Shown one piece after another: positions 368-17,000 of a stretch of DNA of 64,000 nucleotides. Both the position numbers and the translations under genes were made by a program. The stretch comes from Pseudobdellovibrionaceae bacterium. GTDB lineage: Bacteria; Bdellovibrionota; Bdellovibrionia; Bdellovibrionales; Bdellovibrionaceae. Every line of letters starts with the position of its first letter. The first letter of the stretch is position 1. The DNA lies in the NCBI GenBank assembly GCA_039810425.1, contig JBDHWW010000017.1:1-64000 (forward strand), given 5' to 3'. The notes under the pieces are model-generated. The model was given only the letters and a program-made list of their open reading frames with translations, searched no databases and had not been told where the DNA came from.

Positions 368-391
368 GCCCCGAAGGGCCTCCGCCTTTTC

Positions 392-652: not shown

Positions 653-656
653 AATC

Positions 657-767
657 TTACGCTCCTTCCCAGATATACTCACCGTTAGTAAAAATGGTGA
701 GGACACTGATTTTTAGTTGTTTCCTAACCTTGCGGTAAAAGAAAAACTGCGATTTTACTGTTCTCAT
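657..767 (-). CDS. Small ORF, 36 aa (MRTVKSQFFFYRKVRKQLKISVLTIFTNGEYIWEGA), not in the ORF track
   Basis: Translated by hand; GGAGGT RBS 4 nt before ATG; stop lies just before the next gene's start; absent from unit 2. Confidence 0.5.
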   Translation of the reverse strand: MRTVKSQFFFYRKVRKQLKISVLTIFTNGEYIWEGA

Positions 768-797
768 AACCACCTCCAAAAAAGGGCGGGGGCCCTT

Positions 798-992
798 TTA
801 GGCCCCCCGTTTTTGGTATTTGCGACTGATGACGGCATCTAAGAATTTCTTAGAAAAGAACATCACCGTTTTATGGTTCAGGAAAACCATCACGGTATTC
901 CCTTTCTTCGAGAGACGCACTTTCATCGGTTCTACGATTGTAAGCTCGTCTTTGTATTGACCCGCTTTGGGTTGAGTAGCTTTTTTCTTCAT
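798..992 (-). CDS. Small basic hypothetical protein, 64 aa (paralog of 7748-7942)
   Basis: GGAGG RBS; near-identical protein in unit 2. Confidence 0.75.
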   Translation of the reverse strand: MKKKATQPKAGQYKDELTIVEPMKVRLSKKGNTVMVFLNHKTVMFFSKKFLDAVISRKYQKRGA

Positions 993-1235
993 AAAAACCT
1001 CCTCGGTTTCGTTGTTGAGCCACTACGTTCACAAGTTCTTTGTGTAGTGGCGACAGACAAACGCCCCACAAGTTTAGGGAAAATAAAAAAATCAAATGAA
1101 CTAAGGCGGACAAAACCGTGCCAAGTAATCTTGGTCATGAGTTTTCGTTGAAGCCGTAAGAACAAAACTTTTCAGGAACTTTGGTGGTATTCAGGAGGTT
1201 TTCAGAAAAAAGAGAATCAAATCCATTTAAGGGGA

Positions 1236-2285
1236 ATGAAAAAGACCAAGCGAAAATCAAGAATGGAAATGACTCATGTGGATTGGCTGACCGTGTATGG
1301 TGTGGGAAGCGGAAAACGAGGGGCAGAACTTCTAAAAATTCTCAGAGATAAAATCGGAGTAAAACCAAATGAAAAGACCTACGCAGGTTTTGGAGGTGGT
1401 TGGTTCTTTGAGCAGTTCATTGACCGAGGGTTTAGGCTTTCAACGAATGATGAGGGGTCGGCAAAAGTTGAGCTTCAAGGGCTATTCTGGACGGGAGCCG
1501 TGGCAAATCCCTTTGACGAGTTTTTGGATATAGCAGGAAAGATCCGAACGATTGAAGGCATGAAGTGGAAGCTAACGAGAGTGGATATTGCCACCGATAT
1601 TTTTGGCCTACCCTTGGCGGAGGCTTTTCCCAACCCAAAATCCAAGCGGTATGAGTGAGGCTTTGCGTTCAATTATCACGAACACCAAACGAAGACCCGA
1701 AGCGGTGAGATGCTATTCACAGGCTACACGATACACCGCCAACGGTGGAGCCTAACGGTCTATGATAAACGAGTGGAAATCACGGACGGAAACCCTCACC
1801 CGATTAAGCAATCTTATTTTGAGACACTGGCAGAAAAGGACGAACCGATTACCCGTGTTGAATTGCGGGTCAAGAGTGCTGAGGCTCTGGTCGCCGTTCA
1901 GGGAGCCTTACAGACCGTCTGTAAGGAATCTGCCTTCTGTGAGGCCATTCTCAAGCATTGGGGCGATTATCACCGTATAAAGACCAAGGGAGGCCAAGAC
2001 GAGGCCCGTTTCCGTGGTCTGTTCCGTGAGTTTGAACCCACGACCTTTGAACGTCCCAAGAAGGAAAAACTGAACCGTCTTTTTGACGATTTTAAGGAAG
2101 TGAAAATCAGGGACATGATTCGGGATTTTATCAGATACGGCATCAATGAAAACCAGACCGTCGAAGACCTCACCCGTATTTTTCAAGAACAAATAGAATG
2201 GCTCAAAGAAACGGGGGAAATTGTTGAGGCTCAAAACCAGCCCCAAGGACAGAAACCCGAGGGCGACCGTAAGGGAAGCCCGTAG
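1236..2285 (+). pseudogene. Rolling-circle replication initiator (Rep_trans-like) interrupted by one in-frame TGA
   Basis: ORFs 1236-1658 and 1710-2285 are in one frame; TGA at 1656-1658 replaces TGG (Trp) of the intact paralog 8185-9234; both span 1050 nt. Confidence 0.85.
1907..1925. repeat. Element palindrome variant CTTACAGAC-C-GTCTGTAAG inside rep
   Basis: Read directly; one extra central base relative to the 18-mer. Confidence 0.85.
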
Positions 2286-2347
2286 GGTTTATGGCCTGTG
2301 GTCGCACTGTTCTATCAGGTGCGAGAGCCGTAGGCTCGGGGGGCCAT
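2253..2347. other. Conserved hairpin cluster at the end of rep; candidate double-strand origin or nick site
   Basis: TCGCACTG-TTCTAT-CAGGTGCGA followed by GAGCC-GTA-GGCTC; equivalent at 9203-9294 with compensatory changes. Confidence 0.5.
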
Positions 2348-2445
2348 TTTAATTATCTTTTTTTTCGTCGATGCCCTTTCCATTTATTTTTTAAGAACCC
2401 ACGAGGTCGTGAGTTCAAAAACAATAAATGCCGAAGGAGGCCGTT

Positions 2446-2736
2446 ATGAAAATGTTTATGTTAGTTGAGGTGATTCTCTCTAAAAAATCAGTGAATCCAG
2501 AGACAGGTAAAGTCGTTTACCAATCCTTTTTTAACAACGCTAAAAAAGTGATGGGTGAAGATGGGAAAGAGGGATTTTTGCCAGACACAGGCAAGGTGAA
2601 ATTCGACCAACCGCTTGCGAAAGGTTGGCACCTGTTGATGGTGAAGATTTCCACCTATCAAGGTCAGGTTTTTTATACGGGTCTAAAAGAAATTAAAGAC
2701 CCAAAAATCATTCAAGCATTGAACGAGGGGGAATAA
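2446..2736 (+). CDS. 96-aa protein downstream of rep; putative ssDNA-binding (OB-fold-like) protein
   Basis: AAGGAGG RBS; nearly identical to 9382-9672. Size, beta-strand-like pattern and position after an RCR rep fit gene-V/HelP-like proteins (inference). Confidence 0.6.
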   Translation: MKMFMLVEVILSKKSVNPETGKVVYQSFFNNAKKVMGEDGKEGFLPDTGKVKFDQPLAKGWHLLMVKISTYQGQVFYTGLKEIKDPKIIQALNEGE

Positions 2737-3138
2737 ATGAAACGTCTTCGCCCAATGTTCAAAAAGTTGGAAGGGATTTTCTTAAAGAAAATCCCAGCCG
2801 ATGAAATCCAAGAAATCAGATACATGACCGAGTATCAGGTGAATTACTACGAGATGGTTGTGATTGAAAGACGGTGGCCTCTTTCAGTGAGAGAGGCCCT
2901 TGATTGTGTTGATTTTGTTGTTCTTCACGAGAGAGACCCCCGTTGTTATGAGTATTGGCCCCGTATGGCCGAGCTGTGTAAGCAAGCAATGGACTATCTC
3001 AAAGCCAATACTGGAATATGGGAAGATCCGATTTACGGTCAGGGATATTATGAAAGAGAAAAAGTAAAACCCCGCTATGAATTCAAACGTCAAATCCTTC
3101 GAGGCCATGCCGAGAGTTTAGGATTCGTGATTGTTTAA
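2737..3138 (+). CDS. Conserved element protein, 133 aa, function unknown
   Basis: Abuts the 96-aa gene (TAA ATG); paralog at 9673-10074. Confidence 0.75.
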   Translation: MKRLRPMFKKLEGIFLKKIPADEIQEIRYMTEYQVNYYEMVVIERRWPLSVREALDCVDFVVLHERDPRCYEYWPRMAELCKQAMDYLKANTGIWEDPIYGQGYYEREKVKPRYEFKRQILRGHAESLGFVIV

Positions 3139-3207
3139 CTTTATCAGCCGAGGTTTAAGCCAGTGGCCCGTTGATTATCTTAGGATACTCACGGGCCTTG
3201 GTTTTTT

Positions 3208-3225
3208 CTTACAGACGTCTGTAAG
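3208..3225. repeat. Element palindrome CTTACAGACGTCTGTAAG
   Basis: Perfect 18-bp palindrome, 2 nt beyond the VOC gene stop. Confidence 0.95.
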
Positions 3226-3227
3226 CT

Positions 3228-3608
3228 CTATTTCATTGAACTGAGGCCAAACATATTTCCCTCAGTGTCTTGGCATAAAGTTATCCAGCCAAATTTCCCG
3301 ATTGAGAATTTTGGTCTAATGACCTTCCCTCCAGCAGGAGCAATACGAGTTTCTTCTACGGAGCAATCTTCTACACTGAAATAGACCAAAGTGCCGCCAA
3401 CTCCAGCCCGAGCGTGGGAGGACTTCACAAGAGCACCACCAGCACCATAAGTCGCCATATCCGTAGGAAATGCCATCATTTGTGTCTCGCCTGTTGGGTC
3501 GCTGATATTTTCAAGCTTTTGTTTTAGAACGGTTTCATAGAATGAAACGGCTCGTCCCATATCATTTACATAAATGTCAAACCACCCAATCGCATTTGTT
3601 TTTGCCAT
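3228..3608 (-). CDS. VOC/glyoxalase-like family protein
   Basis: WFDIYVND...RAVSFY and GGKVIRPK.SIG..G....CQDTEGN.FGL patterns. Confidence 0.9.
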   Translation of the reverse strand: MAKTNAIGWFDIYVNDMGRAVSFYETVLKQKLENISDPTGETQMMAFPTDMATYGAGGALVKSSHARAGVGGTLVYFSVEDCSVEETRIAPAGGKVIRPKFSIGKFGWITLCQDTEGNMFGLSSMK

Positions 3609-3676
3609 AATGGACTCCTCTTTCTTGCTTCAAGAAATTCAGAGTAGCTTATGAGGTGCTTGGAGTATTGTATAAA

Positions 3677-4432
3677 TCAGACATCAAATTTTTTGGCGTA
3701 TTTTGTCGGTGTGTAGCCCATCATGTTGCGGAATGAATGAATAAAATGGGATTGGTCGGCGTAGTAAGCGAGATAGTCCTGTTTGAATGACTGTTGTATT
3801 CTTAGAACTTTGAGAAAGTCATGAGGGGAAAAGCCAGTTGTCTTCTTGAGTGTCCTTTGTAGTTGTCGGGATGACATCTTTGTAAGTGCCGCCATATCAG
3901 ATACGGCGTGGATATCATCGAGGTTTGTAAGAATTTGAGCAGTTATGGGATTGGGTACCACTAATTTTTTGGTGATTAAGTTTTCTATGAGTTTTGATAA
4001 GACAACTTGTTTGGAGACAAATGTATCCAAGTTAGAAAGCTCGCTATTCGTTTGAATGAGGGGTAATTTTCCAGAGTAGGATTTATCTACTAAACCTTTG
4101 ATGATTTCGTCGGGGTTTCCTCGCCATACTCCAGGGAGCAGTTGAATCCCCACATAGTGAAATACTTTGCCCAGATTGAGTTCTTTGGCCGTTGTGTTTA
4201 AGGCTGTGATTGCCGCTACCATTGGGTCAAGTTGATTGAACAAGATATTGACGCAAGCATCAGGCAGAACATGATAGCGAAAATCATCAGAGAGTGGAGT
4301 TTTAGTTTTAAGTTCCCAGAAGCAATGAACCAAATCGTGTAAATGGCTTGGTGGTTTTGTTTCTGTGTATGATACAGAGCGAGCCGATTTTTCTATACCG
4401 TCTTTGACTGGGTTGTATGTTATCTTTTTCAT
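3677..4432 (-). CDS. AraC-family transcriptional regulator
   Basis: N-terminal VLPDAC; C-terminal SSRQLQR...TGFSP and YADQSHFIHSFRNMMGYTP HTH motifs. Confidence 0.9.
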   Translation of the reverse strand: MKKITYNPVKDGIEKSARSVSYTETKPPSHLHDLVHCFWELKTKTPLSDDFRYHVLPDACVNILFNQLDPMVAAITALNTTAKELNLGKVFHYVGIQLLPGVWRGNPDEIIKGLVDKSYSGKLPLIQTNSELSNLDTFVSKQVVLSKLIENLITKKLVVPNPITAQILTNLDDIHAVSDMAALTKMSSRQLQRTLKKTTGFSPHDFLKVLRIQQSFKQDYLAYYADQSHFIHSFRNMMGYTPTKYAKKFDV

Positions 4433-4449
4433 AAAACGGTCGGCCTTCC

Positions 4450-4467
4450 CTTATAGACGTCTGTAAG
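4450..4467. repeat. Element palindrome (1 mismatch) CTTATAGACGTCTGTAAG
   Basis: Lies between the HEPN stop (4471) and the AraC start (4432). Confidence 0.9.
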
Positions 4468-4470
4468 GAT

Positions 4471-4881
4471 TTAGGCTGATGTGTGGGTCTTGGCCCAATT
4501 CGCAATGTTCTGGGCCACTTTCAAAGAGGCTTCAATTTCTTCTTTGGTGAGAGGAGTGTCCCCCTCGTGGTAACGACGGACCGAAGCGAAGGGATTTAAT
4601 TCCATAAGTCCAAAACCCTCGGCAGGCATTTTTTCGTCTGGCAAGAGGGCAACCAGAACACCCAAGTCGTGAAGTAGTGGGAACGCAATTTCAAGGTGAA
4701 CCAGCACAGACTTGATGTATTTCTCAACGGCCTGTTGAGCGAGAAAAACAATGTTTTCAGGTCGTCCGCCATCACTGACTTTGGAAAGCGTTTTCGCAGA
4801 GGCCAAATCACCATCCGCAATTCTTAAAAGTTCTTTGGCGTATTTTTTTTGAAAAAGTTGTTTTTTTAGATTTCTCGTCAT
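4471..4881 (-). CDS. HEPN domain protein (PF05168-type), partner of MNT
   Basis: FLAQQAVEKYIKS..., HDLGVL and RRY motifs; ATGA overlap with the MNT stop. Confidence 0.85.
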   Translation of the reverse strand: MTRNLKKQLFQKKYAKELLRIADGDLASAKTLSKVSDGGRPENIVFLAQQAVEKYIKSVLVHLEIAFPLLHDLGVLVALLPDEKMPAEGFGLMELNPFASVRRYHEGDTPLTKEEIEASLKVAQNIANWAKTHTSA

Positions 4882-5228
4882 CGCAATTTCATTCCATTGT
4901 GAAAAGCGACGAAGCAAACGCCGCCAAAGTTTTTCCGTTCGTCAAAGGACTCTTTAGTTTTGAAAATCCAATCAATGGCAATATCGGTAAAGCGACGAGT
5001 GTAAACTTCTTTTTGAAGTTGTTTGATAGAGGCTTGGTCTTTGACGACGACAACAAAATCCAAGTCCGAGTCAGCCGTAAAGTTTCCGTAAACAGCGGAG
5101 CCAAAAAGATAGGCTTCCAAAATCAAATCTTGAGAAGGAATGGAGTTCAAAACCTCAACGGCTTTTTGTTGAGCCCATTTATTCATTTCTGGGTCGTGGA
5201 TCATTTTTAATAAACCCATTTTGGCCAC
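4878..5228 (-). CDS. Minimal nucleotidyltransferase (MNT), putative antitoxin
   Basis: YLFGSAVYGNFTADSDLDFVVV (GS-x10-DxD motif). Confidence 0.9.
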   Translation of the reverse strand: MAKMGLLKMIHDPEMNKWAQQKAVEVLNSIPSQDLILEAYLFGSAVYGNFTADSDLDFVVVVKDQASIKQLQKEVYTRRFTDIAIDWIFKTKESFDERKNFGGVCFVAFHNGMKLR

Positions 5229-5308: not shown

Positions 5309-5448
5309 TCTCGGGCTTATCCACCGGGACTAATTTCTATTGTGATTTCGAGGGGTTGTCAAATGGCGACGGAGCCCAGACGTAGGGCGGTAATAAGATT
5401 TTGAATTATGACTTTGAGCTAATTTCCGAATGGTGAGAGTTGGCGGGA

Positions 5449-6549
5449 ATGACCAAACTCTCGCAGTTGGATAGAATGGTGGGGATGTCTTGTACGATTA
5501 GAGTCACCGCACATGAGGAAATGGAAATCACCCTGAACCGTTGGGCTCAGGTTTTGGATGTTCTTGATAAAGAACGAAAACTGGCTGGCGAACGCCGCCA
5601 CTTGAAGGGCTACCAAGTCCGACAAAAAGAATTGCTCAAAGCAGAAATGAAAAACGCCCGGGGTGGTGAATCCGAGGCAATTAAATCTGTCCGCAAAAAA
5701 CTCTACACTCCACTCGATTACTTCGTCGTTTACCTGAATGAAAAATGGGACATGGCTTTTGAGACGTATCAAGTTTTGGAATTTATATTTCGGGCCTCGC
5801 TAGAAAGCCACGAGCGGGACTTGTTTGACTACGGCCAAAAACGCTACGCCTCTGCGTTGAAGACTGTAAAAGGAACGGCCAAGCAAAAATATGAACAGAT
5901 TTTATTTTTGACTCAGAAATTTTCACAGGAAAGTTTCTTTGGTCTCGATGACCTTTTCCCGACGAAAACAGAGTATGTGAACGACTTGAACAAAGAACTG
6001 CGGGGACATATTGCCCGCATTCAGACGCTCCAACAGCAGTTGGAAAAAGAAGAAGACAAAAATTCTCCGCTCCATGCCGTCGTCCAAGAGTTAAGGAAAA
6101 CCGCACGGGGTTTGGAGTCTTGGGCTTTCGGTCGTGTCTTGGGGCAAGAGCAAAACAGAGGCTTTCTTTCGTTTCGTGATGGTCAGATTGTGATGGACCA
6201 TAAGAACTTTCTTTATTTTAAAATTTATATTCTGGTTTTCATGGGAACGTATGGGGAATTCGCTCATCGAGTTTTTCCCGACAGAAATAATTTAGTCTGC
6301 CAACTGGCGGAGAAAAAATTGAAGTTTGAATCAGGACGGCATTTCGACGACTTCATCACGCCTCGTTTTTTGAGCGGTCGTGAACGGTTTGCCGACCAAG
6401 ATAGAGATGTCGAAAATATCCCGCAGGAGCGTGGATTTTTAGACGATGAGCTTTTGACTTATATTGTTGAGCAAAACAGCGAGCTTTTAATGAAAGGTGA
6501 ACTTCCATTTCACCTTGTAAAACGAATTAAAGGCAAACGACCGGCTTAA
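5449..6549 (+). CDS. Hypothetical protein, ~366 aa, helical/coiled-coil rich
   Basis: Long ORF; no family recognised. Confidence 0.7.
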   Translation: MTKLSQLDRMVGMSCTIRVTAHEEMEITLNRWAQVLDVLDKERKLAGERRHLKGYQVRQKELLKAEMKNARGGESEAIKSVRKKLYTPLDYFVVYLNEKWDMAFETYQVLEFIFRASLESHERDLFDYGQKRYASALKTVKGTAKQKYEQILFLTQKFSQESFFGLDDLFPTKTEYVNDLNKELRGHIARIQTLQQQLEKEEDKNSPLHAVVQELRKTARGLESWAFGRVLGQEQNRGFLSFRDGQIVMDHKNFLYFKIYILVFMGTYGEFAHRVFPDRNNLVCQLAEKKLKFESGRHFDDFITPRFLSGRERFADQDRDVENIPQERGFLDDELLTYIVEQNSELLMKGELPFHLVKRIKGKRPA

Positions 6550-6725
6550 GAAGCCCTTCCGATTTTCTCACTTCTTTAAATAATTCATTTACTTACAGAC
6601 CGCCTGCGAGAGTTGGCGAGTCATGTCTAATTCTCACCGATTTTAAGTTCCTCCCGTCGGCTCCTTTATTCTGGGGGAGATTTAACAGCACGACGAGCAA
6701 CATAACAACCCCCATAGGAGGAACC

Positions 6726-7409
6726 ATGGGTAAACAAGTAAAGGCTAGCGGGTCCTTAAAACCCGCACAGGCAAAAGTGGCCCTGTCCAAAACCACTTAT
6801 CACCCTCTTATCAATCAAGCGGTGTTGAAAGCTGTTTCCAAAACAGTCACCGCCATTGATAAGGTTTTGATTGGGGAAAGAAAATTGTCCGTCAATCTTG
6901 GCAGTCTGCTTGCCAAATTGAAAGGCGAGTTCTCAACTCACTTGAAAAAAACCGGCAAATCTCCAAGTGATTTTCAAGTCAAAACCGCATTCCATAATTT
7001 TGTCCAAATTAGGTTCAAGATTGGAGAGAGCCGGACCAATGAGTATATGAAATTGGCGGAGCGGGAGGACTTACACCGCTTGGGCCTGCCAACCTCGGTG
7101 CTCATTGAGCTTGCCCGCCTTGAACCGGACGCTCTTAAAGAGTTCAAGAAAAAGCACCCCACGGCGGAACTTAAAAAGTTATCGTTCAAAACGGTGCGGA
7201 AACTTATCCGTGGTGACAATGAAAACAAACGGAATAAGACCATCAAGAGTGAGGACCGAAAAGAAACCCCACAGTTGATTGCGGAAAAGCTGAAATCCAC
7301 TTTTGAAATTGTTCGGGACAAGTTTGAGGACGAACCGGAGATTGATAAAGAGATTTATTCCGTGATTGGTGAAATGTCCAAATGGCTCATTGATAAAAAG
7401 GCGGCTTAA
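6726..7409 (+). CDS. Basic DNA-binding protein, DUF3102-like HTH
   Basis: AGGAGG RBS; LGSLLAKLK...FHNFVQIRFKIGESRTNEYMKLA resembles the DUF3102 pattern (by eye). Confidence 0.55.
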   Translation: MGKQVKASGSLKPAQAKVALSKTTYHPLINQAVLKAVSKTVTAIDKVLIGERKLSVNLGSLLAKLKGEFSTHLKKTGKSPSDFQVKTAFHNFVQIRFKIGESRTNEYMKLAEREDLHRLGLPTSVLIELARLEPDALKEFKKKHPTAELKKLSFKTVRKLIRGDNENKRNKTIKSEDRKETPQLIAEKLKSTFEIVRDKFEDEPEIDKEIYSVIGEMSKWLIDKKAA

Positions 7410-7421
7410 CTGCTCCTTTGG

Positions 7422-7456
7422 AACCCCCTGAGTATTCCTCAGGGGGTTTATTTTTT
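7422..7456. terminator. Intrinsic terminator between convergent genes
   Basis: AACCCCCTGAG-TATTC-CTCAGGGGGTT followed by a T-rich tract. Confidence 0.75.
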
Positions 7457-7457
7457 C

Positions 7458-7718
7458 TTAGGACGCTTTGAAAACATCATCGTCGTCAGCATCCACATTC
7501 CGATAAATGTTAATCACTTTTTCGGCGTTGTCTTCGTAGTTAGAATACGACGCTGATTTTCCGTTTTTGGAAAAACGGATTTCTGATTTTTTCGCCACAG
7601 TGATTTTATAGAGAAAATACTGAGTTAAAAAAATCTTTAAAACACCAACGACCGAGACCAAGATGGCTGAGTGCCAGATAACCGTCGATAAGTTTTCAAC
7701 GACAAATTTATAGTCCAT
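7458..7718 (-). CDS. Small single-TM membrane protein, 86 aa
   Basis: GGAGGT RBS; paralog of 392-652. Confidence 0.75.
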   Translation of the reverse strand: MDYKFVVENLSTVIWHSAILVSVVGVLKIFLTQYFLYKITVAKKSEIRFSKNGKSASYSNYEDNAEKVINIYRNVDADDDDVFKAS

Positions 7719-7747
7719 ACCTACCTCCAAAAAAAGGGCGGGAGCCC

Positions 7748-7942
7748 TTATGCCCCCCGCTGTTGATACTTACGAGTGATAACGGCATCCAAGAATTTCT
7801 TAGAAAACATCATCACGGTTTTTTGATTCAGGAAAACCATGACGGTATTTCCTTTTTTCGAGAGACGAACTTTCATCGGTTCGATGATTGTCAGTGCGTC
7901 TTTGAATTGACCCTCTTGTGGTTGAGTCGCCTTTTTCTTCAT
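7748..7942 (-). CDS. Small basic hypothetical protein, 64 aa
   Basis: Start at MKKKATQ with GGAGG RBS; paralog of 798-992. Confidence 0.75.
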   Translation of the reverse strand: MKKKATQPQEGQFKDALTIIEPMKVRLSKKGNTVMVFLNQKTVMMFSKKFLDAVITRKYQQRGA

Positions 7943-8184
7943 AAAAACCTCCCTAGGTTTCGTTGTTGAGCCACTACGTTCACAAGTCCCTTGTGTAGTG
8001 GCGATATACAAACGCCCCATGATTCAGGAAAATAAAAAATCAAATGAACTCAGGCGGACAAAACCATGCCGAGTAATCTTGGCCATGAGTTTTCGTAGAG
8101 CCGTAAGAACGACGCTTTTCAGGAAGGCTGGGGGCATTTGAGGAGGTTTTTTAGAAAAAATGAGCTCAATTCCATTTAAGTTGG

Positions 8185-9234
8185 ATGGAAAAGAAAAAGA
8201 CAAAATCAAGAATGGAGATGACTCACGTTGATTGGATTACCGTCTATGGAATGGGAAGCGAAAAACGTGGTGCTGAACTTCTAAAAATTCTGCGGGATAA
8301 AATCGGAGTAAAGCCAAACGAAAAGACCTACGCTGGCTTTGGAGGTGGTTGGTTTTTTGAACAATTCATTGACCGAGGATTTAGGCTTTCAACGAATGAC
8401 GAAGGCTCTGCCAAAGTTGAACTCCAAGGACTTTACTGGACGGGGGCTGTGGCAAATCCCTTTGAAGAGTTTTTGAAAACGGTGGGAAAGATTAGAACGA
8501 TTGAGCACATGAATTGGAAGCTCACTCGTGTGGACGTGGCGACTGATATCTTTGGATTCGGTTTAGCCGAAGCATTTCCAAATCCAAAATCCAAGCGGTA
8601 TAAATGGGGCTTTGCCTTTAACTATCACGAACACCAAACCAAGACCCGAACAGGTGAATTGCTTTTCACAGGGTTCACTATTCAAAAGCAAAGGTGGAGC
8701 CTTACCGTTTACGACAAACGGGTTGAAATCACTGAGGGGAACCCGCACCCGATTAAGCAGTCTTATTTTGAAACGTTGGCTGAAAAAGATGAACCGATTA
8801 CGAGGGTGGAGCTAAGGGTCAAGAGTGCGGAAGCCCTTGTCGCCGTTCAGGGAGCCCTTACAGGCGTCTGTAAGGAGTCAGAGTTCTGCGGGGCCATCCT
8901 TAAACAGTGGGGCGATTACCACCGTATAAAGACAAAGGGCGACCATGACGAGGCCCGTTTTCTACGACTATTCAGGAAGATAGAATCCACGACCTTTGAA
9001 CGGGTCAAAAAAGAAAAGATCGAGCGTCTTTATGATGATTTTAAGGAAATAAAAATCAGGGACATGGCCCGTGATTTTATCAGATACGGCATTCACGAAA
9101 ATCAAACCGCCGACGATGTGGCTCGTATTTTCCAAGAGCAAATGGATTGGCTCAAAGAAAATGGGGAATTGACCAAGGCAAATGAACCGCCCCCGAGCCA
9201 GAAGCCGAAGGGCGACCGTTCAGGGAGTCCATAG
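8185..9234 (+). CDS. Rolling-circle replication initiator/relaxase, Rep_trans (pT181/MOBT-like) superfamily
   Basis: Motifs LTRVDVATD, SLTVYDKRVE (putative catalytic Tyr) and ITRVELRVK. Confidence 0.8.
   Translation: MEKKKTKSRMEMTHVDWITVYGMGSEKRGAELLKILRDKIGVKPNEKTYAGFGGGWFFEQFIDRGFRLSTNDEGSAKVELQGLYWTGAVANPFEEFLKTVGKIRTIEHMNWKLTRVDVATDIFGFGLAEAFPNPKSKRYKWGFAFNYHEHQTKTRTGELLFTGFTIQKQRWSLTVYDKRVEITEGNPHPIKQSYFETLAEKDEPITRVELRVKSAEALVAVQGALTGVCKESEFCGAILKQWGDYHRIKTKGDHDEARFLRLFRKIESTTFERVKKEKIERLYDDFKEIKIRDMARDFIRYGIHENQTADDVARIFQEQMDWLKENGELTKANEPPPSQKPKGDRSGSP
8857..8874. repeat. Element palindrome variant CTTACAGGCGTCTGTAAG inside rep
   Basis: 1 mismatch; same position in rep as 1907-1925. 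Confidence 0.85.
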
Positions 9235-9294
9235 GCTGATGGCGACGGTCGCACCTGTTCTATCAGGTGCGAGTGCCGAAGGCACTTGGGCATC
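9203..9294. other. Conserved hairpin cluster at the end of rep; candidate double-strand origin
   Basis: Perfect stem TCGCACCTG-TTCTAT-CAGGTGCGA (9249-9272) plus AGTGCC-GAA-GGCACT. Confidence 0.5.
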
Positions 9295-9381
9295 TTTTTT
9301 TAGAGAAACCTCCATTCCATTTACTTTTTTAAGAACCCACATGATGTGAGTTCAAAAAAATAAAATGCCAAGGAGGCAGTT

Positions 9382-9672
9382 ATGAAAATGTTCATGTTAG
9401 TTGAGGTGATTCTCTCTAAAAAATCAGTGAATCCAGAAACAGGTAAAGTTGTTTACCAGTCCTTTTTTAACAACGCTAAAAAAGTGTTGGGTGAAGATGG
9501 GAAAGAGGGATTTTTGCCAGATACGGGCAAGGTAAAATTCGACCAACCGCTCGCAAAAGGTTGGCACTTACTGATGGTGAAGATTTCCACCTATCAGGGG
9601 CAAGTGTTCTACACGGGTTTAAAAGAAATCAAAGACCCAAAAATCATTCAAGCATTGAGCGAGGGGGAATAA
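9382..9672 (+). CDS. 96-aa putative ssDNA-binding protein
   Basis: Paralog of 2446-2736; AAGGAGG RBS. Confidence 0.6.
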   Translation: MKMFMLVEVILSKKSVNPETGKVVYQSFFNNAKKVLGEDGKEGFLPDTGKVKFDQPLAKGWHLLMVKISTYQGQVFYTGLKEIKDPKIIQALSEGE

Positions 9673-10074
9673 ATGAAACGCTTACGCCCAATGTTCAAAA
9701 AGTTGGAAGGGATTTTCTTAAAGGAAATTCCTGTCGATGACGTTCACGAAATCAAATATATGACCGAGTATCAGGTGAACTATTATGAGTCCGTCGTGAT
9801 TCACCGACGTTGGCCCCTCTCAGTCAGGGAAGCCCTTGATTGTGTGGACTTCGTGATTCTGCACGAGCGAGACCCACGCTGTTATGAATACTGGCACCGC
9901 ATGGCAGCCATATTCAAAGGTGCGATGGATTACTTGAAAGCTAATACTGGAATTTGGGAGGACCCGATTTTTGGTCAAGGAATGTATGAGATGAAAGAAA
10001 TAAAACCCCGCTATGAATTCAAGCAGCGAGTCCTGCGAGGCCATGCCGAGCGATTAGGATTTGTAGTCGTTTAA
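9673..10074 (+). CDS. Conserved element protein, 133 aa
   Basis: Paralog of 2737-3138. Confidence 0.75.
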   Translation: MKRLRPMFKKLEGIFLKEIPVDDVHEIKYMTEYQVNYYESVVIHRRWPLSVREALDCVDFVILHERDPRCYEYWHRMAAIFKGAMDYLKANTGIWEDPIFGQGMYEMKEIKPRYEFKQRVLRGHAERLGFVVV

Positions 10075-10148: not shown

Positions 10149-10403
10149 TTAGTCTGTCCCAACCCTCACAGGAATATCGAGAGCTTTACAGATATAGAAA
10201 AGGACCGGCAAGCTTGGATACCGTTGCTGCTGTTCGATAAATTGAATTGTCATTACCGCCAAATCCAGACTTTCAGCCAGTTGCTCCTGAGTCAGCCCCA
10301 TCTCTTTTCTTCGGGACTGAATGACGACCGAGATATTTTTTAACTGAGCTTCCACGGCTTTTCTGTACTTTGGTGGAACTTTTTCTAATCTTGTTCCCAC
10401 CAA
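10149..10403 (-). CDS. XRE-family HTH regulator
   Basis: RRKEMGLTQEQLAESLDL....IQFIEQ..RYPSL. Confidence 0.9.
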   Translation of the reverse strand: MVGTRLEKVPPKYRKAVEAQLKNISVVIQSRRKEMGLTQEQLAESLDLAVMTIQFIEQQQRYPSLPVLFYICKALDIPVRVGTD

Positions 10404-10419
10404 GACATTATCGAAATTC

Positions 10420-10450
10420 CTTACTTATAGTAACACCTACTCTAAGTAAG
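10420..10450. promoter_or_regulatory. Inverted-repeat operator candidate between the divergent XRE and peptidase genes
   Basis: CTTACTTATAGT-N7-ACTCTAAGTAAG (11 of 12 complementary). Confidence 0.5.
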
Positions 10451-10515
10451 CATTTAGGTCTGGTCATGGATGTATTTAATTGCTGTGGCTAGATTTTTAT
10501 AAGAACATCTATAGT

Positions 10516-12429
10516 ATGGCATATAGAAAAATTATCATTTTATCGACTCTGATTTTATTTGCTCCATTATCGGGAAATTCACAAGGTAAGTCGTGTCTCG
10601 CTTGCGGATTCAATATGTCGACCGAATCGGCGAAAGCGGGACAAGCCAATCCTTGTGATGATTTGTTCGGGGCTTCTTGTGTAGGGACCGATGGTAAATC
10701 CAAGTATAGCGGGGCGTCTAAGAACCTGACCGCTGAATTGTCCAAGCCCATTAGAAAAGCTCGCAATAAGACTGTCCAGGCGATGGGATACAAGGACATT
10801 GACGATGCTGTGAAAGCAAAGTTGAAAGAAGCAGGAATTATTGTAAAGGAACCGCCTGACCAGGATACTTGGAAAAATCTTATCGGTGAAGGCGATGGGT
10901 CTTGGACAAGTGGTGTTGGTTCTAAGCTTTATGCATCCGCAGACCAGTGCGACAAAGATGTTAAAGAGCTTCAAGTAATACAATATTACAGTATGACTGA
11001 CGCATCGGCTTTGAACGAGGTGGCTACAAAATATGAGTCCTTCATTTCCAGATACCGAGAACAGTCAGTAAAATTTTACGCCAAAGATATTCCTAACTTC
11101 GTTAGTAATCATATTGGTCAAAAATGCAGTCAGCTAAAATCAAACTCATCAAATTATAAGCCGGAAGAAAATCAAGAAATCGTAAAAGCTTGCGAAAATT
11201 CAGGGGTTTTGAAAAGAAAAGGAGTTGAGCTTTTTAGGGCTGAGGGAACGGCAGATTATGAGAGATTGGCTGAGCAGTTTGTAAGGGAGAACCTCCTCCC
11301 AGAATTGAAATATAGCTACCAAACGTCGTCTTCGCCAACAACGCCACCCCCTGAAAAGTCAGATGCGGACAAAGCCAGAGAGCGAATCCAGAGATTAAGC
11401 AGTTCCGTCAGCAATTATTGCGATAACTATTCGTCAACGATTGAAAATGCGGGTAAAAAAGTTGTTGAGGATTTTATGAAGACCGTTTCAAAATCCAAAA
11501 CGACGGTGGATGCCGTAATTGATTCTGTTTACAGCGAGGAAAAAGAAAAGCTCGCAAACGAAATATTCCAAACCGCTCGCTCCGATATTCAGGACCTTAC
11601 TAAGTCCTTTGTTAAAGACCCGAAAAAAAGAGGCGAAATTCTTGATGGCTATGATGGCCTGAAACTTTTTTGGATGAAAAAGCCGGACGACACGGCTTAC
11701 ATAAAAGATAAAAATGGAACACTTGTTCTAGATGAAAGCAAAGCTGTGGTGAATCCAGCAGACCAAACGAGTTCGATATTTTTTGACCCGAATCTATCTT
11801 TTTTCAAGACGATGAACGCATTCTATACCCCGTCTGCTTCATACGGGAAAATGAAGACCGATGAGCAAGTGAATATGATGCCTGCTTTTGTATCGATGCT
11901 GGATAAAAACCCTTATGCCTATATGGCGGTTGTCGCTCATGAAGCCGGTCATAAAATCGGTCCGATGGTCAGCAATATCAATGGATACGATTTATCATCT
12001 GAATATAGGGAGTTGCTGGCCTGTTACAAGGACAATAGGTCCATCAAGTTGGAGGATAATCAAGGAGACGAAACGATGTCTGATTATTTTTCCTCGGAGG
12101 TATTAGCTCGCCAAATTCAAAAGCTTCCTGAGGAGAAGAGGAAACAAGCGGTGATGTCTGCAATGCAGGGATACTGCATGTTTGATGAGTCACAAGAACA
12201 TTCTTTTTCTTGCAAGGGAAATCATCCAGAAAACTCTCTGCGGGTAAGTGGTATCTTTGGGTCAAATCCCAGTATTCGAAAAATTTTGGGATGCTCCAAG
12301 GACTCCCCAAAATTCAGAACTTGTGGTTTGAAGACGTCAATTCTTGATTTGGCAGAAGAATCAAAGACCACCGTCGGAACTTCTAGCGACCGAGCAAACG
12401 ATACGAAAGCGACACGAGGTGTTCGATGA
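10516..12429 (+). CDS. Secreted zinc metallopeptidase, M13 (neprilysin)-like C-terminal domain
   Basis: Signal peptide; NAFY, AHEAGH (HExxH), DETMSD and HPENSLRV motifs in M13 order. Confidence 0.7.
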   Translation: MAYRKIIILSTLILFAPLSGNSQGKSCLACGFNMSTESAKAGQANPCDDLFGASCVGTDGKSKYSGASKNLTAELSKPIRKARNKTVQAMGYKDIDDAVKAKLKEAGIIVKEPPDQDTWKNLIGEGDGSWTSGVGSKLYASADQCDKDVKELQVIQYYSMTDASALNEVATKYESFISRYREQSVKFYAKDIPNFVSNHIGQKCSQLKSNSSNYKPEENQEIVKACENSGVLKRKGVELFRAEGTADYERLAEQFVRENLLPELKYSYQTSSSPTTPPPEKSDADKARERIQRLSSSVSNYCDNYSSTIENAGKKVVEDFMKTVSKSKTTVDAVIDSVYSEEKEKLANEIFQTARSDIQDLTKSFVKDPKKRGEILDGYDGLKLFWMKKPDDTAYIKDKNGTLVLDESKAVVNPADQTSSIFFDPNLSFFKTMNAFYTPSASYGKMKTDEQVNMMPAFVSMLDKNPYAYMAVVAHEAGHKIGPMVSNINGYDLSSEYRELLACYKDNRSIKLEDNQGDETMSDYFSSEVLARQIQKLPEEKRKQAVMSAMQGYCMFDESQEHSFSCKGNHPENSLRVSGIFGSNPSIRKILGCSKDSPKFRTCGLKTSILDLAEESKTTVGTSSDRANDTKATRGVR

Positions 12430-12833
12430 GAATGGCAATATTCTTTGCAGTCATAATATGTTCCTTCGGAGCTTTTGCTAAAACCAAGCAGACAGCTATT
12501 TTAGAGGTGAGTTTTGAAAGAGCAAAAAAATCTCATGTATATAAGATCGTGAAATCTGCTTCTAAGAAATCCGAATACAACTTGTTATTTACTGATGAAA
12601 AAAGAAAAACGAAATCTCACAGACTATCGCAAAGGCAAGCAGAGCAGATAAAGAACGAGGCAACCAGAATCATCTGGGAAAATCAGTATAGAAAACCAGC
12701 CTCAACCGATAGTTGTCGTGAATATATGACCATTAAAACTGACTTAGAAAAATCAAAAATCTGCTATGAGAATAGAGCTTCTGTTGGCAGGGCTTTCGGT
12801 TTTATTAATTCATTGGACAAGACTATAAATTGA
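12426..12833 (+). CDS. Secreted hypothetical protein, 135 aa
   Basis: Signal peptide ending AFA; ATGA overlap with the peptidase gene. Confidence 0.7.
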   Translation: MRMAIFFAVIICSFGAFAKTKQTAILEVSFERAKKSHVYKIVKSASKKSEYNLLFTDEKRKTKSHRLSQRQAEQIKNEATRIIWENQYRKPASTDSCREYMTIKTDLEKSKICYENRASVGRAFGFINSLDKTIN

Positions 12834-12874: not shown

Positions 12875-13285
12875 TTATTCTCGGGTATTGGCCTTAGCCC
12901 AATCAGCAACTTTTTGAGCGGTAGATAAAGAGGTTTCAATCTCCTCGGTCGTCAGAGGGATTTGACCTTCTTCGTAGCGACGAACCGTCGCAAAAGGATT
13001 CAACTCAGTCAATCCAAAGCCCTCTGGAGGCATCTTGTCGTCAGGCAAGAGAGCCACCAAAATTCCCAAATCATGAACGACGGGAAAGCCAATCTGCAAG
13101 TGAACAAGCACGGCCTTGATGTATTTCTCGACAGACTGTTGAGCCAAAAAAATAATGTTCTCGGGTCGGCCAGACTTCGCTTTGGAAAGGGCTACCGCAG
13201 AATCTAAATCTCCCGCTGCAATTTTCAAAAGCTCTTTGGAATATTCTTTTTTGTAGAGACGTTTTTTTAGATTCGGAGGTGTCAT
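12875..13285 (-). CDS. HEPN domain protein
   Basis: FLAQQSVEKYIKA, HDLGIL, RRY; paralog of 4471-4881. Confidence 0.85.
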   Translation of the reverse strand: MTPPNLKKRLYKKEYSKELLKIAAGDLDSAVALSKAKSGRPENIIFLAQQSVEKYIKAVLVHLQIGFPVVHDLGILVALLPDDKMPPEGFGLTELNPFATVRRYEEGQIPLTTEEIETSLSTAQKVADWAKANTRE

Positions 13286-13629
13286 CGCAGTTTCTTCCCG
13301 TGATGAAAGGCATCAAAGCATGCACCGCCAAAATCTTTTCGCTCATCAAAAGATTTTTTAGTTTTGAAAATCCAGTCAATCGCAATATCGGCAAAGCGAG
13401 GGGCGTAAACTTCTTTTTGCAGTTGTTTAACGGATGCTTCATCTTTCACAACGATGACAAAATCCAAATCAGAGTCATCAGTGAAAACGCCTTCCACTGC
13501 GGAACCAAAAAGATAAGCTTCTAAAATTAAATCTTGTGAAGGAATGGCGTTCAGAACTTCCACGGCTTTTTGTTGAGCCCACTGGTTCATTGCTGGATTT
13601 GGAATCATTTTTAGCAAGCCCACTGTCAT
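13282..13629 (-). CDS. Minimal nucleotidyltransferase (MNT)
   Basis: YLFGSAVEGVFTDDSDLDFVIV. Confidence 0.9.
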   Translation of the reverse strand: MTVGLLKMIPNPAMNQWAQQKAVEVLNAIPSQDLILEAYLFGSAVEGVFTDDSDLDFVIVVKDEASVKQLQKEVYAPRFADIAIDWIFKTKKSFDERKDFGGACFDAFHHGKKLR

Positions 13630-13639
13630 CCCTTCTTCC

Positions 13640-13657
13640 CTTACAGACGTCTGTAAG
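13640..13657. repeat. Element palindrome (26-bp perfect, 13636-13661)
   Basis: TTCCCTTACAGACGTCTGTAAGGGAA, 3 nt beyond the tRNA CCA end. Confidence 0.95.
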
Positions 13658-13664
13658 GGAAAAC

Positions 13665-13741
13665 TGGTGACTCCACCAAGAATCGAACTTGGAACCCCTA
13701 CCTTAGAAGGGTAGTGCTCTATCCAATTGAGCTATGGAGCC
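13665..13741 (-). tRNA. tRNA-Arg(TCT), complete, element-borne
   Basis: GGCTCCA-TA-GCTC(AATTGGATA)GAGC-A-CTACC(CTTCTAA)GGTAG-GGGTT-CCAAG(TTCGATT)CTTGG-TGGAGTC-A-CCA folds into a full cloverleaf. Confidence 0.97.
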
Positions 13742-13754
13742 ACATCTGCCAAAA

Positions 13755-13783
13755 ATTATAATGAATTCTTATCTTTATAGCAA
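13755..13783 (-). promoter_or_regulatory. Sigma70-type promoter of the element tRNA
   Basis: TTGCTA-17 bp-TATAAT on the minus strand. Confidence 0.7.
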
Positions 13784-13841
13784 GGAAGAGGGCTTCCAAA
13801 GTAAGCCAAAAGCATCCTCGTGTCATCCATTTTTTTGAAAA

Positions 13842-15056
13842 TTAATCTCCGAGGTCTGCCAATTCCGTAGAAAACTGCCTGTCGTCTTGGTCATATTTCA
13901 TCGTCATCTGATGCGTCGTGTGACCAGCCGCCCGTTGAACGTCTTTCCAGTGGTGCTTGCGGTGGGCGTCAGTGATGAACGTCCGTCTGAAATCGTGGGA
14001 AGAGTGCCCGAATTTTCCAAGGATTTTGTTTACCCGTTTATTAAGGGTGCTTGGGTGTAATGGGACAATTTTTTGAATCAGCTCCCAAGCCTCTTTTGCG
14101 TCCATATTCCAATAAGGAACTTTGCGGACATTGGTTTTCACTTTGCGGGTGAGGATTTTTCCGTCTTTCACTCCGGCCCCTTGCTCGTCCACCAAAAGAC
14201 TTTCTTTCAACAGTTTCAATCGGGAAAAACCGAGCGATTCGTTTATCCGCAGGCCAAAGGCGTAGCAAAGCTTGATGTTCGGGAGCAGACTTGCGTCTTC
14301 TTCCTCCACCGCTTTTAGTATTTTTTTGTAAGTGGCATCAGGGACATATTTCGATTCGTCGCCTTCGCCCTTTTTCTTTTTGAGGTAATTGATTTCACTG
14401 AACTTGGCTCGACCGATGGGCTCCAATTTTCGAGGAGCCGGCATTTCGGGATAGACTTTTTGGGTGAGAAATCTGAGGAAACGATTCGTCGTGGAAACAA
14501 TTCTTTTCAAAAGAGCGACAGATAAATCTTGGTCCAAAAGCCACTCGCCCCAGTCATCTTCTCTGAGGTGCCACTTGCTCGGGTCAGCTAAATCATTTTT
14601 GATAATGAAAAACTCAAAGACATATTTTTGCAGAATGGTTACGGGATAGCTTGCCGAACCCTTTGTGGTGGTTTGTTTTTTGAGATGTTTCTCAAAAGCA
14701 GAGAGTGATGTGATGTTGATAAACGCATGGTGGAAGTTGTAGCGTTCTTCGGCCAGTTTTTTCTCAGTGGCAAATGAGGCATTAAGACGTCGGAGAAGAC
14801 CACCGAGTTCCGTCTCGTTCATGTCTTTGTAATGTTTGGCGGGATAACGGTTCCACGTTATTTTGCCGTTCACTTTGCGATAACGCTTGATGCAGTTTCG
14901 CTCAATACCGCTTCTGTTTTTCTCACGGACGAGATACCACTTTGACCACTCAGTGGTCGTCTCTTGAATGTTGGTTGCGAGTTTCAATTCTCCCACCTTT
15001 TCATTGTGTAGCCACGGCGGAAAAACGGTGAGACCAGTTGGATATTCACTATCCAA
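13842..15056 (-). CDS. Tyrosine recombinase/integrase
   Basis: Catalytic set GLRINE (R), HDFRRT (HxxR), AGH and KYD (Y); lies next to the att core. Confidence 0.9.
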   Translation of the reverse strand: MDSEYPTGLTVFPPWLHNEKVGELKLATNIQETTTEWSKWYLVREKNRSGIERNCIKRYRKVNGKITWNRYPAKHYKDMNETELGGLLRRLNASFATEKKLAEERYNFHHAFINITSLSAFEKHLKKQTTTKGSASYPVTILQKYVFEFFIIKNDLADPSKWHLREDDWGEWLLDQDLSVALLKRIVSTTNRFLRFLTQKVYPEMPAPRKLEPIGRAKFSEINYLKKKKGEGDESKYVPDATYKKILKAVEEEDASLLPNIKLCYAFGLRINESLGFSRLKLLKESLLVDEQGAGVKDGKILTRKVKTNVRKVPYWNMDAKEAWELIQKIVPLHPSTLNKRVNKILGKFGHSSHDFRRTFITDAHRKHHWKDVQRAAGHTTHQMTMKYDQDDRQFSTELADLGD

Positions 15057-15142
15057 CTTTGGACCTAAGTTTTATCCAGCACAAAAGGCTAACAGATTGA
15101 TTTTTCGGTGGAATTAGACTTTGAACTTGCTAACTTTTGGGA

Positions 15143-15182
15143 CTTAGAAGGCAATTGCTCTATCCAGCTGAGCTACAGCACC
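15143..15182 (-). pseudogene. 5' half of a different tRNA-Arg(TCT), presumed original host gene, truncated at the anticodon loop (att junction)
   Basis: GGTGCTG-TA-GCTC(AGCTGGATA)GAGC-A-ATTGC-CTTCTAA-G, then non-tRNA sequence; the expected GCAAT and T-arm are absent. Confidence 0.88.
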
Positions 15183-15253: not shown

Positions 15254-16108
15254 CTACAATACCCCCGTGTTTTCCGCCTCATCTTCCAGTAACTGCCGCC
15301 TTTGGGTTGAGGCACAGATGGCAACACCCCCTAAAATCACGTACCACACGGTCAAAACCCAAATGAGAAAAATTGGTACGGCTGCGAAACTTCCGTAGAT
15401 GCTGCTGATACGGAAAAATTTCACTGTCACCCAGGTAAATGTGTTTTGAACCACCCAAAGGCCCAAGGCCGCGAGCAAAGCCGAAAAGAACGCGGACTTG
15501 GCCTTCACCTTCAAATCCGGCACGTACTTATAGACCAAATACAGCACCAGAATCAGGGTGCTGACTCCCGTTGCCGTGCCCGGCAGGAACTGCTTGCCGA
15601 ACTCCATGCGCACCAGGGTGGTAAAGCCCACATAAATTGCCAAGAAAACAGGCAGGATGATGACCAGGAAAAAGTAAATAAAGAAGCGCTTCAAAAGTGA
15701 CCTGGAGTTGCGCTGATTCCACACGCGGTGAATCCCGAACTCCATATCATGCATCAGACGAAAGCTCGTGAGCACCAAGAATGCCGCCCCAACGACGCCC
15801 AGGCCGCCGGCGTGGATGTTGCGAATCGCGGTCTTAATCACGTGTGTGAAATCAGCCCCGGCTGCTTCTTTGAAATAAAGCAGTAACAAATTTTCCACGC
15901 GCGTATACAAAATGTCATCGCCGCCGAGGAATTTAAAGGTCGCGAGGATGACTGAAAGAAACGGGACCACTGATAACATGGTTGAGAATGACAAACTCGC
16001 GGCCACCAGTTGGATTTCTCCATCGCGCAGTTGATACACCAAATCCTTCCCCATGTATAACAGGCGGCGGAAGTACATGCGCGAAAGTGTGCGAAATTTC
16101 ATCATCAT
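15254..16108 (-). CDS. YihY/BrkB family membrane protein
   Basis: AASLSFSTMLSVVPFL and IYGSFAAVPIFLIW motifs; start codon uncertain. Confidence 0.9.
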   Translation of the reverse strand: MMMKFRTLSRMYFRRLLYMGKDLVYQLRDGEIQLVAASLSFSTMLSVVPFLSVILATFKFLGGDDILYTRVENLLLLYFKEAAGADFTHVIKTAIRNIHAGGLGVVGAAFLVLTSFRLMHDMEFGIHRVWNQRNSRSLLKRFFIYFFLVIILPVFLAIYVGFTTLVRMEFGKQFLPGTATGVSTLILVLYLVYKYVPDLKVKAKSAFFSALLAALGLWVVQNTFTWVTVKFFRISSIYGSFAAVPIFLIWVLTVWYVILGGVAICASTQRRQLLEDEAENTGVL

Positions 16109-16109
16109 T

Positions 16110-17000
16110 CTATAACCAATAGCGCTCCCTGACTGCGAAGTCAGGACCCTTTTTTTCAATCAGTGCGGAATCACAGTACGGATCGTGTTCGAAGAACAAG
16201 TACCAGCTGTGGTCCGCGGCCTCGGACAGGTACTTTTGTTTTTCTTCCATCAGCACCAGCGGATGTAGATCATAACCCATAAGCCACGGTATTTTCACAT
16301 GCGTGCTGGTTGGGACAACGTCGCCGCAATATAATAATGTGGTTTTACCGTCGCTCACTTTCACCATCTGCTGGCCTTGCGTGTGGCCATTCGAGATTAA
16401 GGTTGAAATTCCCGGGAGAAGATTTTCCACCGGGCCTTCCAGCGCCACGAGTTGGTTGCTGTCAATCAATGGTTGAAAGTTCGCCGGGTAGTAACTCGCG
16501 CGTTCTCTCAAGTTGGGCGTGCTGGCGGTCTCAAGGTTCGCCTTTTGAACGTAGTACTTGGCCTTCGGAAAAGCCGGCACGAGTTTATGATCACGCTCTA
16601 TGGTTGCGCCACCGGCATGGTCAAAGTGCAAGTGAGTCAGAATCACATGATCGACGTCCTCGGGACTAAGACCATGTGCCTTGAGTGATTTCAGCAAACT
16701 AGGGCCATGGTCATCTATGTTATACATTTCTGCGAATTTGGGCCCGAGCTTATCACCGTACTTGGTAACAAAGTCGCCGCCGTTACCGGTATCAATCAGA
16801 ATATTGCAGCCACGGGATTTTAAAAGCAAACCGCGGGCTTCCATCTGAATACGGTTTTTGTCATCAGGCGGGTTGGTTTTTTCCCAGAGAACTTTCGGGA
16901 CTGTCCCGAACATGGCGCCACCATCGAGTCCGAAGATTCCAGTTGGAATCGGGCAGACTTCATAGGCGCCGATTTTAAGCTTCAAATGTTGGGTCGTCAT
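16110..17000 (-). CDS. MBL-fold metallo-hydrolase
   Basis: LDGGAMFG, THLHFDHAG, GHT and FEHD motifs. Confidence 0.9.
   Translation of the reverse strand: MTTQHLKLKIGAYEVCPIPTGIFGLDGGAMFGTVPKVLWEKTNPPDDKNRIQMEARGLLLKSRGCNILIDTGNGGDFVTKYGDKLGPKFAEMYNIDDHGPSLLKSLKAHGLSPEDVDHVILTHLHFDHAGGATIERDHKLVPAFPKAKYYVQKANLETASTPNLRERASYYPANFQPLIDSNQLVALEGPVENLLPGISTLISNGHTQGQQMVKVSDGKTTLLYCGDVVPTSTHVKIPWLMGYDLHPLVLMEEKQKYLSEAADHSWYLFFEHDPYCDSALIEKKGPDFAVRERYWL

Follow-up and report, generated by a model that had tools for sequence, protein, structure and literature searches.

A small integrative element without recognisable virion genes very probably splits the single tRNA-Arg(TCT) gene of a Bdellovibrionaceae-like host and supplies a diverged, itself re-targeted replacement

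Classical islands that target tRNA genes by lambda- or P4-type integrases carry the tRNA's 3′ half and restore the gene, and their attB is regarded as made up of core sites alone. The anticodon loop was reportedly named as a sublocation for such islands by Williams in 2002. The locus described here is similar to these islands in its anticodon-loop crossover, the position of the integrase beside attL, the arm-type repeats of attP and the occurrence of tandem arrays. It differs from them in that attP is devoid of a tRNA 3′ part and attL is not an intact gene.

The closest described system is tRNA-dependent lysogeny, which was experimentally shown for actinobacteriophages in 2024 and for which a wider use was predicted (PMC10865867, accessible part). 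The cases named there are Fionnbharth (K4), LeBron (L1), Cain (K6), Gaia (X) and OneUp (CQ2). As in these phages, an arm-domain tyrosine integrase appears to act on a host tRNA gene (the recombination is read here from the sequence), the core is short and lies in the anticodon region (8–17 bp there, 9 bp here), the tRNA is not rebuilt at attL or attR, and a tRNA of matching isotype is carried with its own promoter, here a consensus match. Close relatives that rebuild the gene occur in both groups (Boilgate among the phages, G330 here). In contrast to the phages, the element has a size of 9–10 kb, a Rep_trans-like initiator and no virion genes that could be found; its host is Bdellovibrionota-like, its target Arg-TCT is absent from Table 2 of that paper, and its tRNA is located about 100 bp past the integrase. 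In the accessible part of the paper, neither a re-targeted replacement nor a D-loop determinant nor fixation after integrase decay is described for the phages (PMC10865867). Since no phage genes were found, the element does not represent tRNA-dependent lysogeny in the strict sense.

A second parallel are the Lo5R7ANS-like prophages in two strains of Sinorhizobium meliloti, in which tRNA-Leu(UAG) is disrupted centrally and replaced by a diverged isoacceptor of the element (PMC11476347). They share with the present case a Gram-negative host, the central disruption of the tRNA, the diverged replacement and the fact that they are known from sequence alone. They differ in being prophages with another isotype, and nested use is not reported in the accessible text (PMC11476347). 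For phiLM21-like prophages the strategy was not found in the accessible part of the source (PMC12429752), and a preprint on mv4 gives, in its accessible part, a 21-bp attB with core sites only. In the literature covered, which consisted largely of papers outside subscription, no non-phage or nested cases and no D-loop or arm site in attB were found. The split-and-replace strategy itself is thus already known and is found here in a non-phage element; the additions are the re-targeted replacement, the stages of fixation and a D-loop rule, the last one in the form of a doubt about recognition of the loop only.

In the window, i.e., the whole stretch of 64,000 nucleotides that was analyzed, the part at 13665..15182 would be the left end of an integrative element of about 9.8 kb with a Rep_trans-like replicon and without recognisable virion genes in a Bdellovibrionaceae-like host. 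Overall, it is very probable that a non-phage element splits the single host tRNA-Arg(TCT) at the loop and supplies a whole diverged replacement, and that this replacement was re-targeted. The split gene, the 9-bp core, both arms, the replacement and the recurrence in other genomes are directly visible in the DNA analyzed.

At the island edge, the 5′ half of the host tRNA-Arg(TCT) was found on the minus strand (attL; 15182-15143). This half has a length of 40 nt and breaks off one base past the anticodon loop, where sequence unrelated to a tRNA takes over; ARAGORN called no tRNA at this position. The preliminary description had reported this cut half, and its host origin was confirmed by two genomes of the same genus, the element-free G005 and the closed genome G001. 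In both, an intact tRNA-Arg(TCT) of the host type with a 5′ half identical to that of the window lies beside a yihY/BrkB-family gene, which serves as flank marker in the window as well (15254..16123, minus strand). The G+C content was 40–47% left and 47–56% right of the attL junction. In addition, one 28-kb contig from a separate assembly of the probable source run, which is not an independent sample, bridges this junction.

The missing host 3′ half was located on another contig of the same assembly (G000:C61, minus strand, from ~14849); between it and its counterpart in G005 there is no difference. When the two halves were joined at the loop, 7/7 acceptor pairs and 5/5 anticodon-stem pairs were obtained. 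The 3′ half is preceded by an arm homologous to window 5309-5403 and by a gene that has 49% identity to the gene at the end of the element in G175. The C61 fragment was therefore assigned as attR of this element family; as the window contig (C17) and C61 are separate contigs, their link is a presumed one. Target and element have only a 9-bp core in common, which consists of the anticodon loop and its closing pair (15143..15151, minus strand) and is present in attL, in a second junction at 5308, in attR on C61 and in the replacement tRNA. Both halves match the intact gene of the relatives with the core between them, which bears out the earlier claim that the host gene was destroyed by integration. 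Because attP has no tRNA 3′ half, the host gene stays split.

On C61, the host 3′ half is abutted by a conjugative element (L001, 279-14900) with VirB4, VirD4/TraD, a MobC-like relaxase and a large serine recombinase. The ORF of this recombinase crosses the tRNA end in antisense orientation; the host tRNA locus thus appears to have been hit from both sides.

A complete tRNA-Arg(TCT), here termed type A, was identified inside the element past the integrase (13741-13665, minus strand). It was called by ARAGORN, scored 68 bits for Rfam RF00005 (cutoff 29) and has an encoded CCA end. With 54 of 77 positions in common with the host tRNA, it is the intact gene with different stems that had been described before. 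Since an intact Arg-TCT gene follows the integrase here and likewise in five other genomes, the proposal that the element carries a whole isoacceptor as replacement was upheld. Among the loci compared, its closest relative was the sole Arg-TCT gene of G025 (68/77). The host's tRNA-Arg(CCT) gene on G000 C68, which had been considered as a possible source of the replacement, was unlike it by eye. The promoter attributed to it earlier could be recovered as a σ70-like site (13783-13755, minus strand) that matches the consensus at 10 of 12 positions. However, three such sites were counted in the 1.9-kb region compared to 1.6 ± 1.4 in shuffled sequences; the promoter is by itself not significant, as the shuffles give similar numbers. 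We infer that the replacement is expressed, functional and needed: the cell would be kept viable by this whole diverged tRNA with its own promoter directly after the integrase.

The tRNA is followed by a 26-bp palindrome (13636..13661), and related copies flank both blocks of MNT-HEPN and cargo genes. The conserved palindrome is located at window positions 3209, 5239, 12849 and 13641 and follows the replacement tRNA also in the relatives. A further copy was observed at G000:C99 (~2068) after a tRNA-like 3′ end. The palindrome may be a terminator or a site of cargo exchange.

The element next to attL, unit A (~9.8 kb), comprises an arm-domain tyrosine integrase, the whole replacement tRNA, an MNT-HEPN pair and a Rep_trans-like initiator. 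The integrase (13842..15056, minus strand; Pfam PF00589, E 6.5e-9), whose true start is probably ~20 codons downstream of the ORF start, has a predicted N-terminal arm-binding-like domain. In the structure model, three strands and a helix were found at residues 41-105 together with a full-length match to lambda Int; the Tn1549 integrase was matched as well. The catalytic residues R270, K307, H354, R357, H379 and Y388 were invariant across 27 integrase sequences. With this N-terminal domain in the model and the R-K-H-R-H-Y residues, the protein fits the lambda-type heterobivalent class. Recombination by such a lambda-type integrase would have taken place between an attP of short core and the anticodon loop in the host's single tRNA-Arg(TCT).

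The nucleotidyltransferase (MNT) and HEPN genes form a toxin-antitoxin-like pair according to Pfam (12875..13629, minus strand). Next to them is variable cargo (10149..12833) with a 649-aa and a 135-aa protein without assignment and an XRE-type HTH protein; the cargo at the same place in G143, G175 and G291 is different. The 649-aa protein (10480-12429), for which no family match was found, begins in a signal-like manner and contains an HExxH-like motif around residue 500. The replication module (8185..10074, plus strand) consists of the initiator and two small conserved ORFs. The initiator matches PF02486 with an E value of 6e-4, which is below the Pfam cutoff, as is the Rep_trans match in the complete G143 element; its Atlas neighbours at 0.95–0.96 include Rep_trans clusters, a match of low recognition value. 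A comparison of the unit to integrative mobilizable elements, which have a Rep_trans relaxase or initiator and lack conjugation genes, yielded this sub-cutoff match and the Atlas lead. The conserved backbone ORFs (369, 227, 90 and 90 aa; 5440..8020) are 88–99% identical in G291. The unit ends in the P arm (5309..5403, minus strand), for which homologous arms are present on C61 as well as in the attR sites of G143, G175 and G291. No capsid, tail, terminase or Zot match was obtained for the proteins of unit A with Pfam and PHROGs, several ORFs being without assignment, or for the nine ORFs of the complete G143 element with Pfam. Backbone fragments (the end of a 133-aa ORF and part of the 227-aa gene region) were also seen far from att sites at G000:C68 (L036, 12087-13250).

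For the distribution of the family, an alignment of the 27 integrases was compared to 384 genomes of the order (E ≤ 1e-40), which resulted in 26 matches in 23 genomes. The complete split layout, in which the host 5′ half is accompanied by core, arm, integrase and a whole replacement, was found at six loci (G000, G009, G197, G175, G143 and G291). These belong to five genera and two families and have four different host anticodon stems, which supports the broad host range suggested before. The MNT-HEPN pair follows the replacement in all of them except G009, where the contig ends. In G143, G175 and G291 both element ends are on one contig at a distance of 8.5–9.1 kb with the same backbone and different cargo. 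The locus in G009, from another genus, has a 93% identical integrase, an identical replacement and a different host tRNA, and for the locus in G291, which belongs to another family, the identity is 91% over 4.9 kb.

A sibling integrase in G330 (54%) has the same tRNA target, which is rebuilt by a long duplication starting at the D-loop. Members of a separate integrase clade split and replace tRNA-Arg(CCT) (G259, G109 and G245), and in G495 tRNA-Thr(CGT) is split and replaced. The integrase tree suggests that split-and-replace arose more than once. When metagenomes were scanned with the integrase alignment, a single useful locus was obtained (L043), and viral sequences yielded none.

Some further loci were recorded. 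In G002, the same host 5′ half as in the window (L033, 1028-1238) is followed 134 bp on by a different whole Arg-TCT gene, and no integrase of this family was found nearby; a degraded 3′ half lies beside a restriction-modification-like gene on another contig (G002:C67, L143). These two are possibly another split-and-replace remnant. Partial 5′ copies of tRNA-Arg(TCT) were located 140–250 bp upstream of a whole gene in G289 (L100), G029 (L127), G347, G349 and G361 (L105-L107) and G094 (L126); the copies in G289 and G029 differ in sequence, and the breakpoints of these partial copies are 3′ of the loop. Downstream of the integrase in G545 (L156), a tRNA(CAT)-like 5′ half continues from the loop into intron-like sequence and is possibly an intron-bearing replacement. 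Upstream of the integrase in G666 (L159), the 5′ part of a tRNA-Leu(CAA) is directly followed by a whole, different tRNA-Leu(CAA).

Whether the host depends on the element for AGA decoding, as had been proposed, was addressed with a pattern for the 5′ part of Arg-TCT genes, which matched in 334 of the 384 genomes. A single match was present in 306 of these 334 and two or three in the other 28. Among the latter are copies that are split or partial, three hits that proved false and about nine genomes with at least two apparently whole copies, in some cases on short contigs or in tRNA clusters. In the closed genome G143, the two 5′ matches are the split half and the replacement, and the two 3′ matches are the replacement and the attR half; hence, this genome has no spare Arg-TCT gene and the disrupted gene was its only host copy. 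For the window's own assembly (G000), one intact Arg-TCT gene was counted among 27 tRNAs. As the tRNAs for Asn, Asp, Glu and Lys are absent from this incomplete set, a second Arg-TCT gene could be unassembled. By the wobble rules, tRNA-Arg(CCT) should not read AGA, and AGA accounts for 4720 of 947,728 codons in the mechanically called long ORFs of G000. A relaxed ARAGORN candidate for Arg-TCT on C135 was rejected, as it lies in GC-rich coding-like DNA and is not a tRNA; this contig is unlike the rest of the genome and probably a contamination of the bin.

The tRNA could alternatively be ordinary cargo, used for codon support or as a shield against a tRNA-cutting defence or the element's own HEPN protein, with another Arg-TCT gene in the host and nothing complemented. 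Some HEPN toxins cut tRNA, and the MNT-HEPN pair directly follows the tRNA; the incomplete tRNA set of G000 would leave room for a further gene, and in G165 a replacement beside a partial integrase coexists with an intact host gene on another contig, which also counts against dependence. Yet the carried isoacceptor is the split one at every split locus seen (Arg-TCT, Arg-CCT and Thr-CGT), the closed G143 has no spare gene, and the canonical sibling in G330 has no second whole copy within the 16 kb examined. Ordinary cargo is therefore considered very unlikely, and the tRNA is regarded as a replacement.

Dependence on this replacement is not absolute, since the host gene would be regained if the whole array were excised precisely; it would hold during integration or after decay of the integrase. 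The contigs of the probable source run contained no attP and no empty attB joint, which is no argument against excision because contigs drop rare forms. The proposed dependence is thus supported comparatively, by the prevalence of single-copy genomes and by G143, but it is not provable for G000. Decay of the integrase with retention of the replacement is apparent in G014 (99% complete) and G021 (72%), in which the host half has become joined to a piece of the integrase by a deletion; the only whole copy found was the replacement. In G113, an identical type-A tRNA is the sole match, next to an MNT remnant and without an integrase nearby.

A junction absent from the preliminary description was identified at the other end of unit A (5308-5263, minus strand). 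Here, the core marks the exact point at which the arm of unit A meets the 3′ half from a second replacement tRNA, termed type B. This half is identical to that of the whole replacement in G197, and the same whole tRNA is present in G014. Compared to type A, type B is changed at 4 of 77 positions, which together make up two compensated anticodon-stem pairs. Beyond the junction, the remnant of a second element was found (unit B, 387..5228) with MNT-HEPN genes, AraC and VOC cargo, a rep gene with an in-frame stop, backbone ORFs and no integrase. Unit B ends near the contig start at a 75-bp repeat (window 1-76) shared with the starts of C32, C53, C77 and C90. This repeat resembles the terminus of a multicopy insertion sequence, by which the assembly would have been interrupted within unit B.

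The junction could be an assembly chimera or a chance deletion between tandem elements instead of a product of the integrase. The type-A tRNA has at least 37 bases in common with the 3′ half, contigs break there and a single such junction was seen. On the other hand, the join falls exactly on the core, its arm side corresponds to attR of G291, its tRNA side has the type-B stem that is whole in G197 and G014, and a contig of the probable source run spans the join without mismatches at a depth like that of its neighbours. This origin was therefore regarded as improbable.

For a junction made by the integrase, the replacement would itself be the attB, as it holds the same loop. The replacement of the earlier unit B would have recombined with the arm of unit A, and the integrase of unit B would have been lost. 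Two routes are conceivable: unit A may have entered the tRNA of unit B, followed by deletion of the integrase between them, or it may have entered attL, after which an internal attP recombined with the tRNA of unit B. Both routes require the replacement to act as attB, and from this one junction we infer that replacements are themselves integration targets. In the resulting array, unit A alone could not excise to a good tRNA: the product of the host 5′ half and the type-B 3′ half has 2/5 anticodon-stem pairs and is not called as Arg. As judged from these halves, only excision of the entire array restores the host gene.

The preliminary description had assumed that the element recognises the anticodon-loop core alone. 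In the host gene, a D-loop hexamer is located 16 to 11 bp before the anticodon loop (15161..15166, minus strand) and is proposed here as a second recognition site. The P′ arm contains three copies of it (15039..15078, minus strand), which are putative arm-type sites. Their positions, +66 and +89 in direct and +100 in inverted orientation, are the same in 6/6 split-type elements of the integrase clade. In the P arms, the hexamer is found at exactly −16 in 5/5 cases (5323-5318 in unit A), while the 10 bp between hexamer and loop have diverged from the tRNA. Since attP has retained the hexamer at −16 and further copies occur in the other arm, recognition of the loop alone became doubtful.

Next, the arms (+40 to +135) of 25 of 32 integrase loci, collapsed to 16 groups, were searched for the D-loop hexamer of their own tRNA; G165, G021, G132, G328, G170, G545 and G014 were left out for want of an intact arm or upstream tRNA, as was L043. 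At least two exact copies were found in 7 of the 16 groups, with four different hexamers among them, compared to a mean of 1.5 in permutations (0 of 20000 reached 7), the arm window and the motif having been picked after the data were seen and the groups being related. None of the 25 arms has two copies of the hexamer of another locus.

These results are compatible with a tentative model, held at a little under an even chance, in which the tRNA is read in two parts: strand exchange would take place in the loop, and a putative arm-type contact would be made on the D-loop 16 bp upstream, with the repeats of attP copying it. The attB would then possess an arm site, one hexamer would switch the target, and, in a kind of arms race, replacements would lose the hexamer or stay invadable, as at 5308, until one is fixed as the sole gene of the host. 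Of nine replacement types, four are without the hexamer (G143, G291, G259 and G109); these losses are not independent, as G143 and G291 have sister integrases. The re-targeted type B keeps the hexamer, and a standard D-loop was present in 148 of the 150 Arg-TCT matches listed. A general self-immunity through the anticodon stem was rejected, as the G175 replacement shares 3/5 loop-adjacent stem pairs with the host and type B was targeted.

It is also conceivable, if on the doubtful side, that the 9-bp core suffices and that the hexamer at −16 of attP is a vestige of a longer tRNA duplication in an ancestor, as in G330. The use of four different host anticodon stems would fit this, as would the start of the G330 duplication at the D-loop. 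Furthermore, nine of the 16 groups have at most one exact copy of the hexamer from their own tRNA and fail the strict test, and on one contig of run X2 the core with the arm adjoins DNA that represents neither a tRNA half nor the P arm and, by eye, has no hexamer at −16. A vestige is harder to reconcile with the exact position in all five P arms despite the diverged 10-bp spacer, with the three copies in P′ and with a hexamer that changes with the target tRNA in the seven positive groups. Target choice is thus probably made by the loop together with the D-loop hexamer at −16, different anticodon stems being tolerated.

If the D-loop contact is true, it would provide a simple rule for the choice of tyrosine integrases among tRNA genes. 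As the att sites are compact, the target is near-universal and single-copy in the order and the replacement selects, the element is a possible integration tool for Bdellovibrio-like hosts. For the biology of the family, the locus would show that split-and-replace integration reaches beyond phages and includes small elements of predatory bacteria that are not phages. The later stages of this process may also be seen in natural genomes, in which the replacement was re-invaded, the array was locked and a core tRNA gene was permanently swapped for a foreign one.
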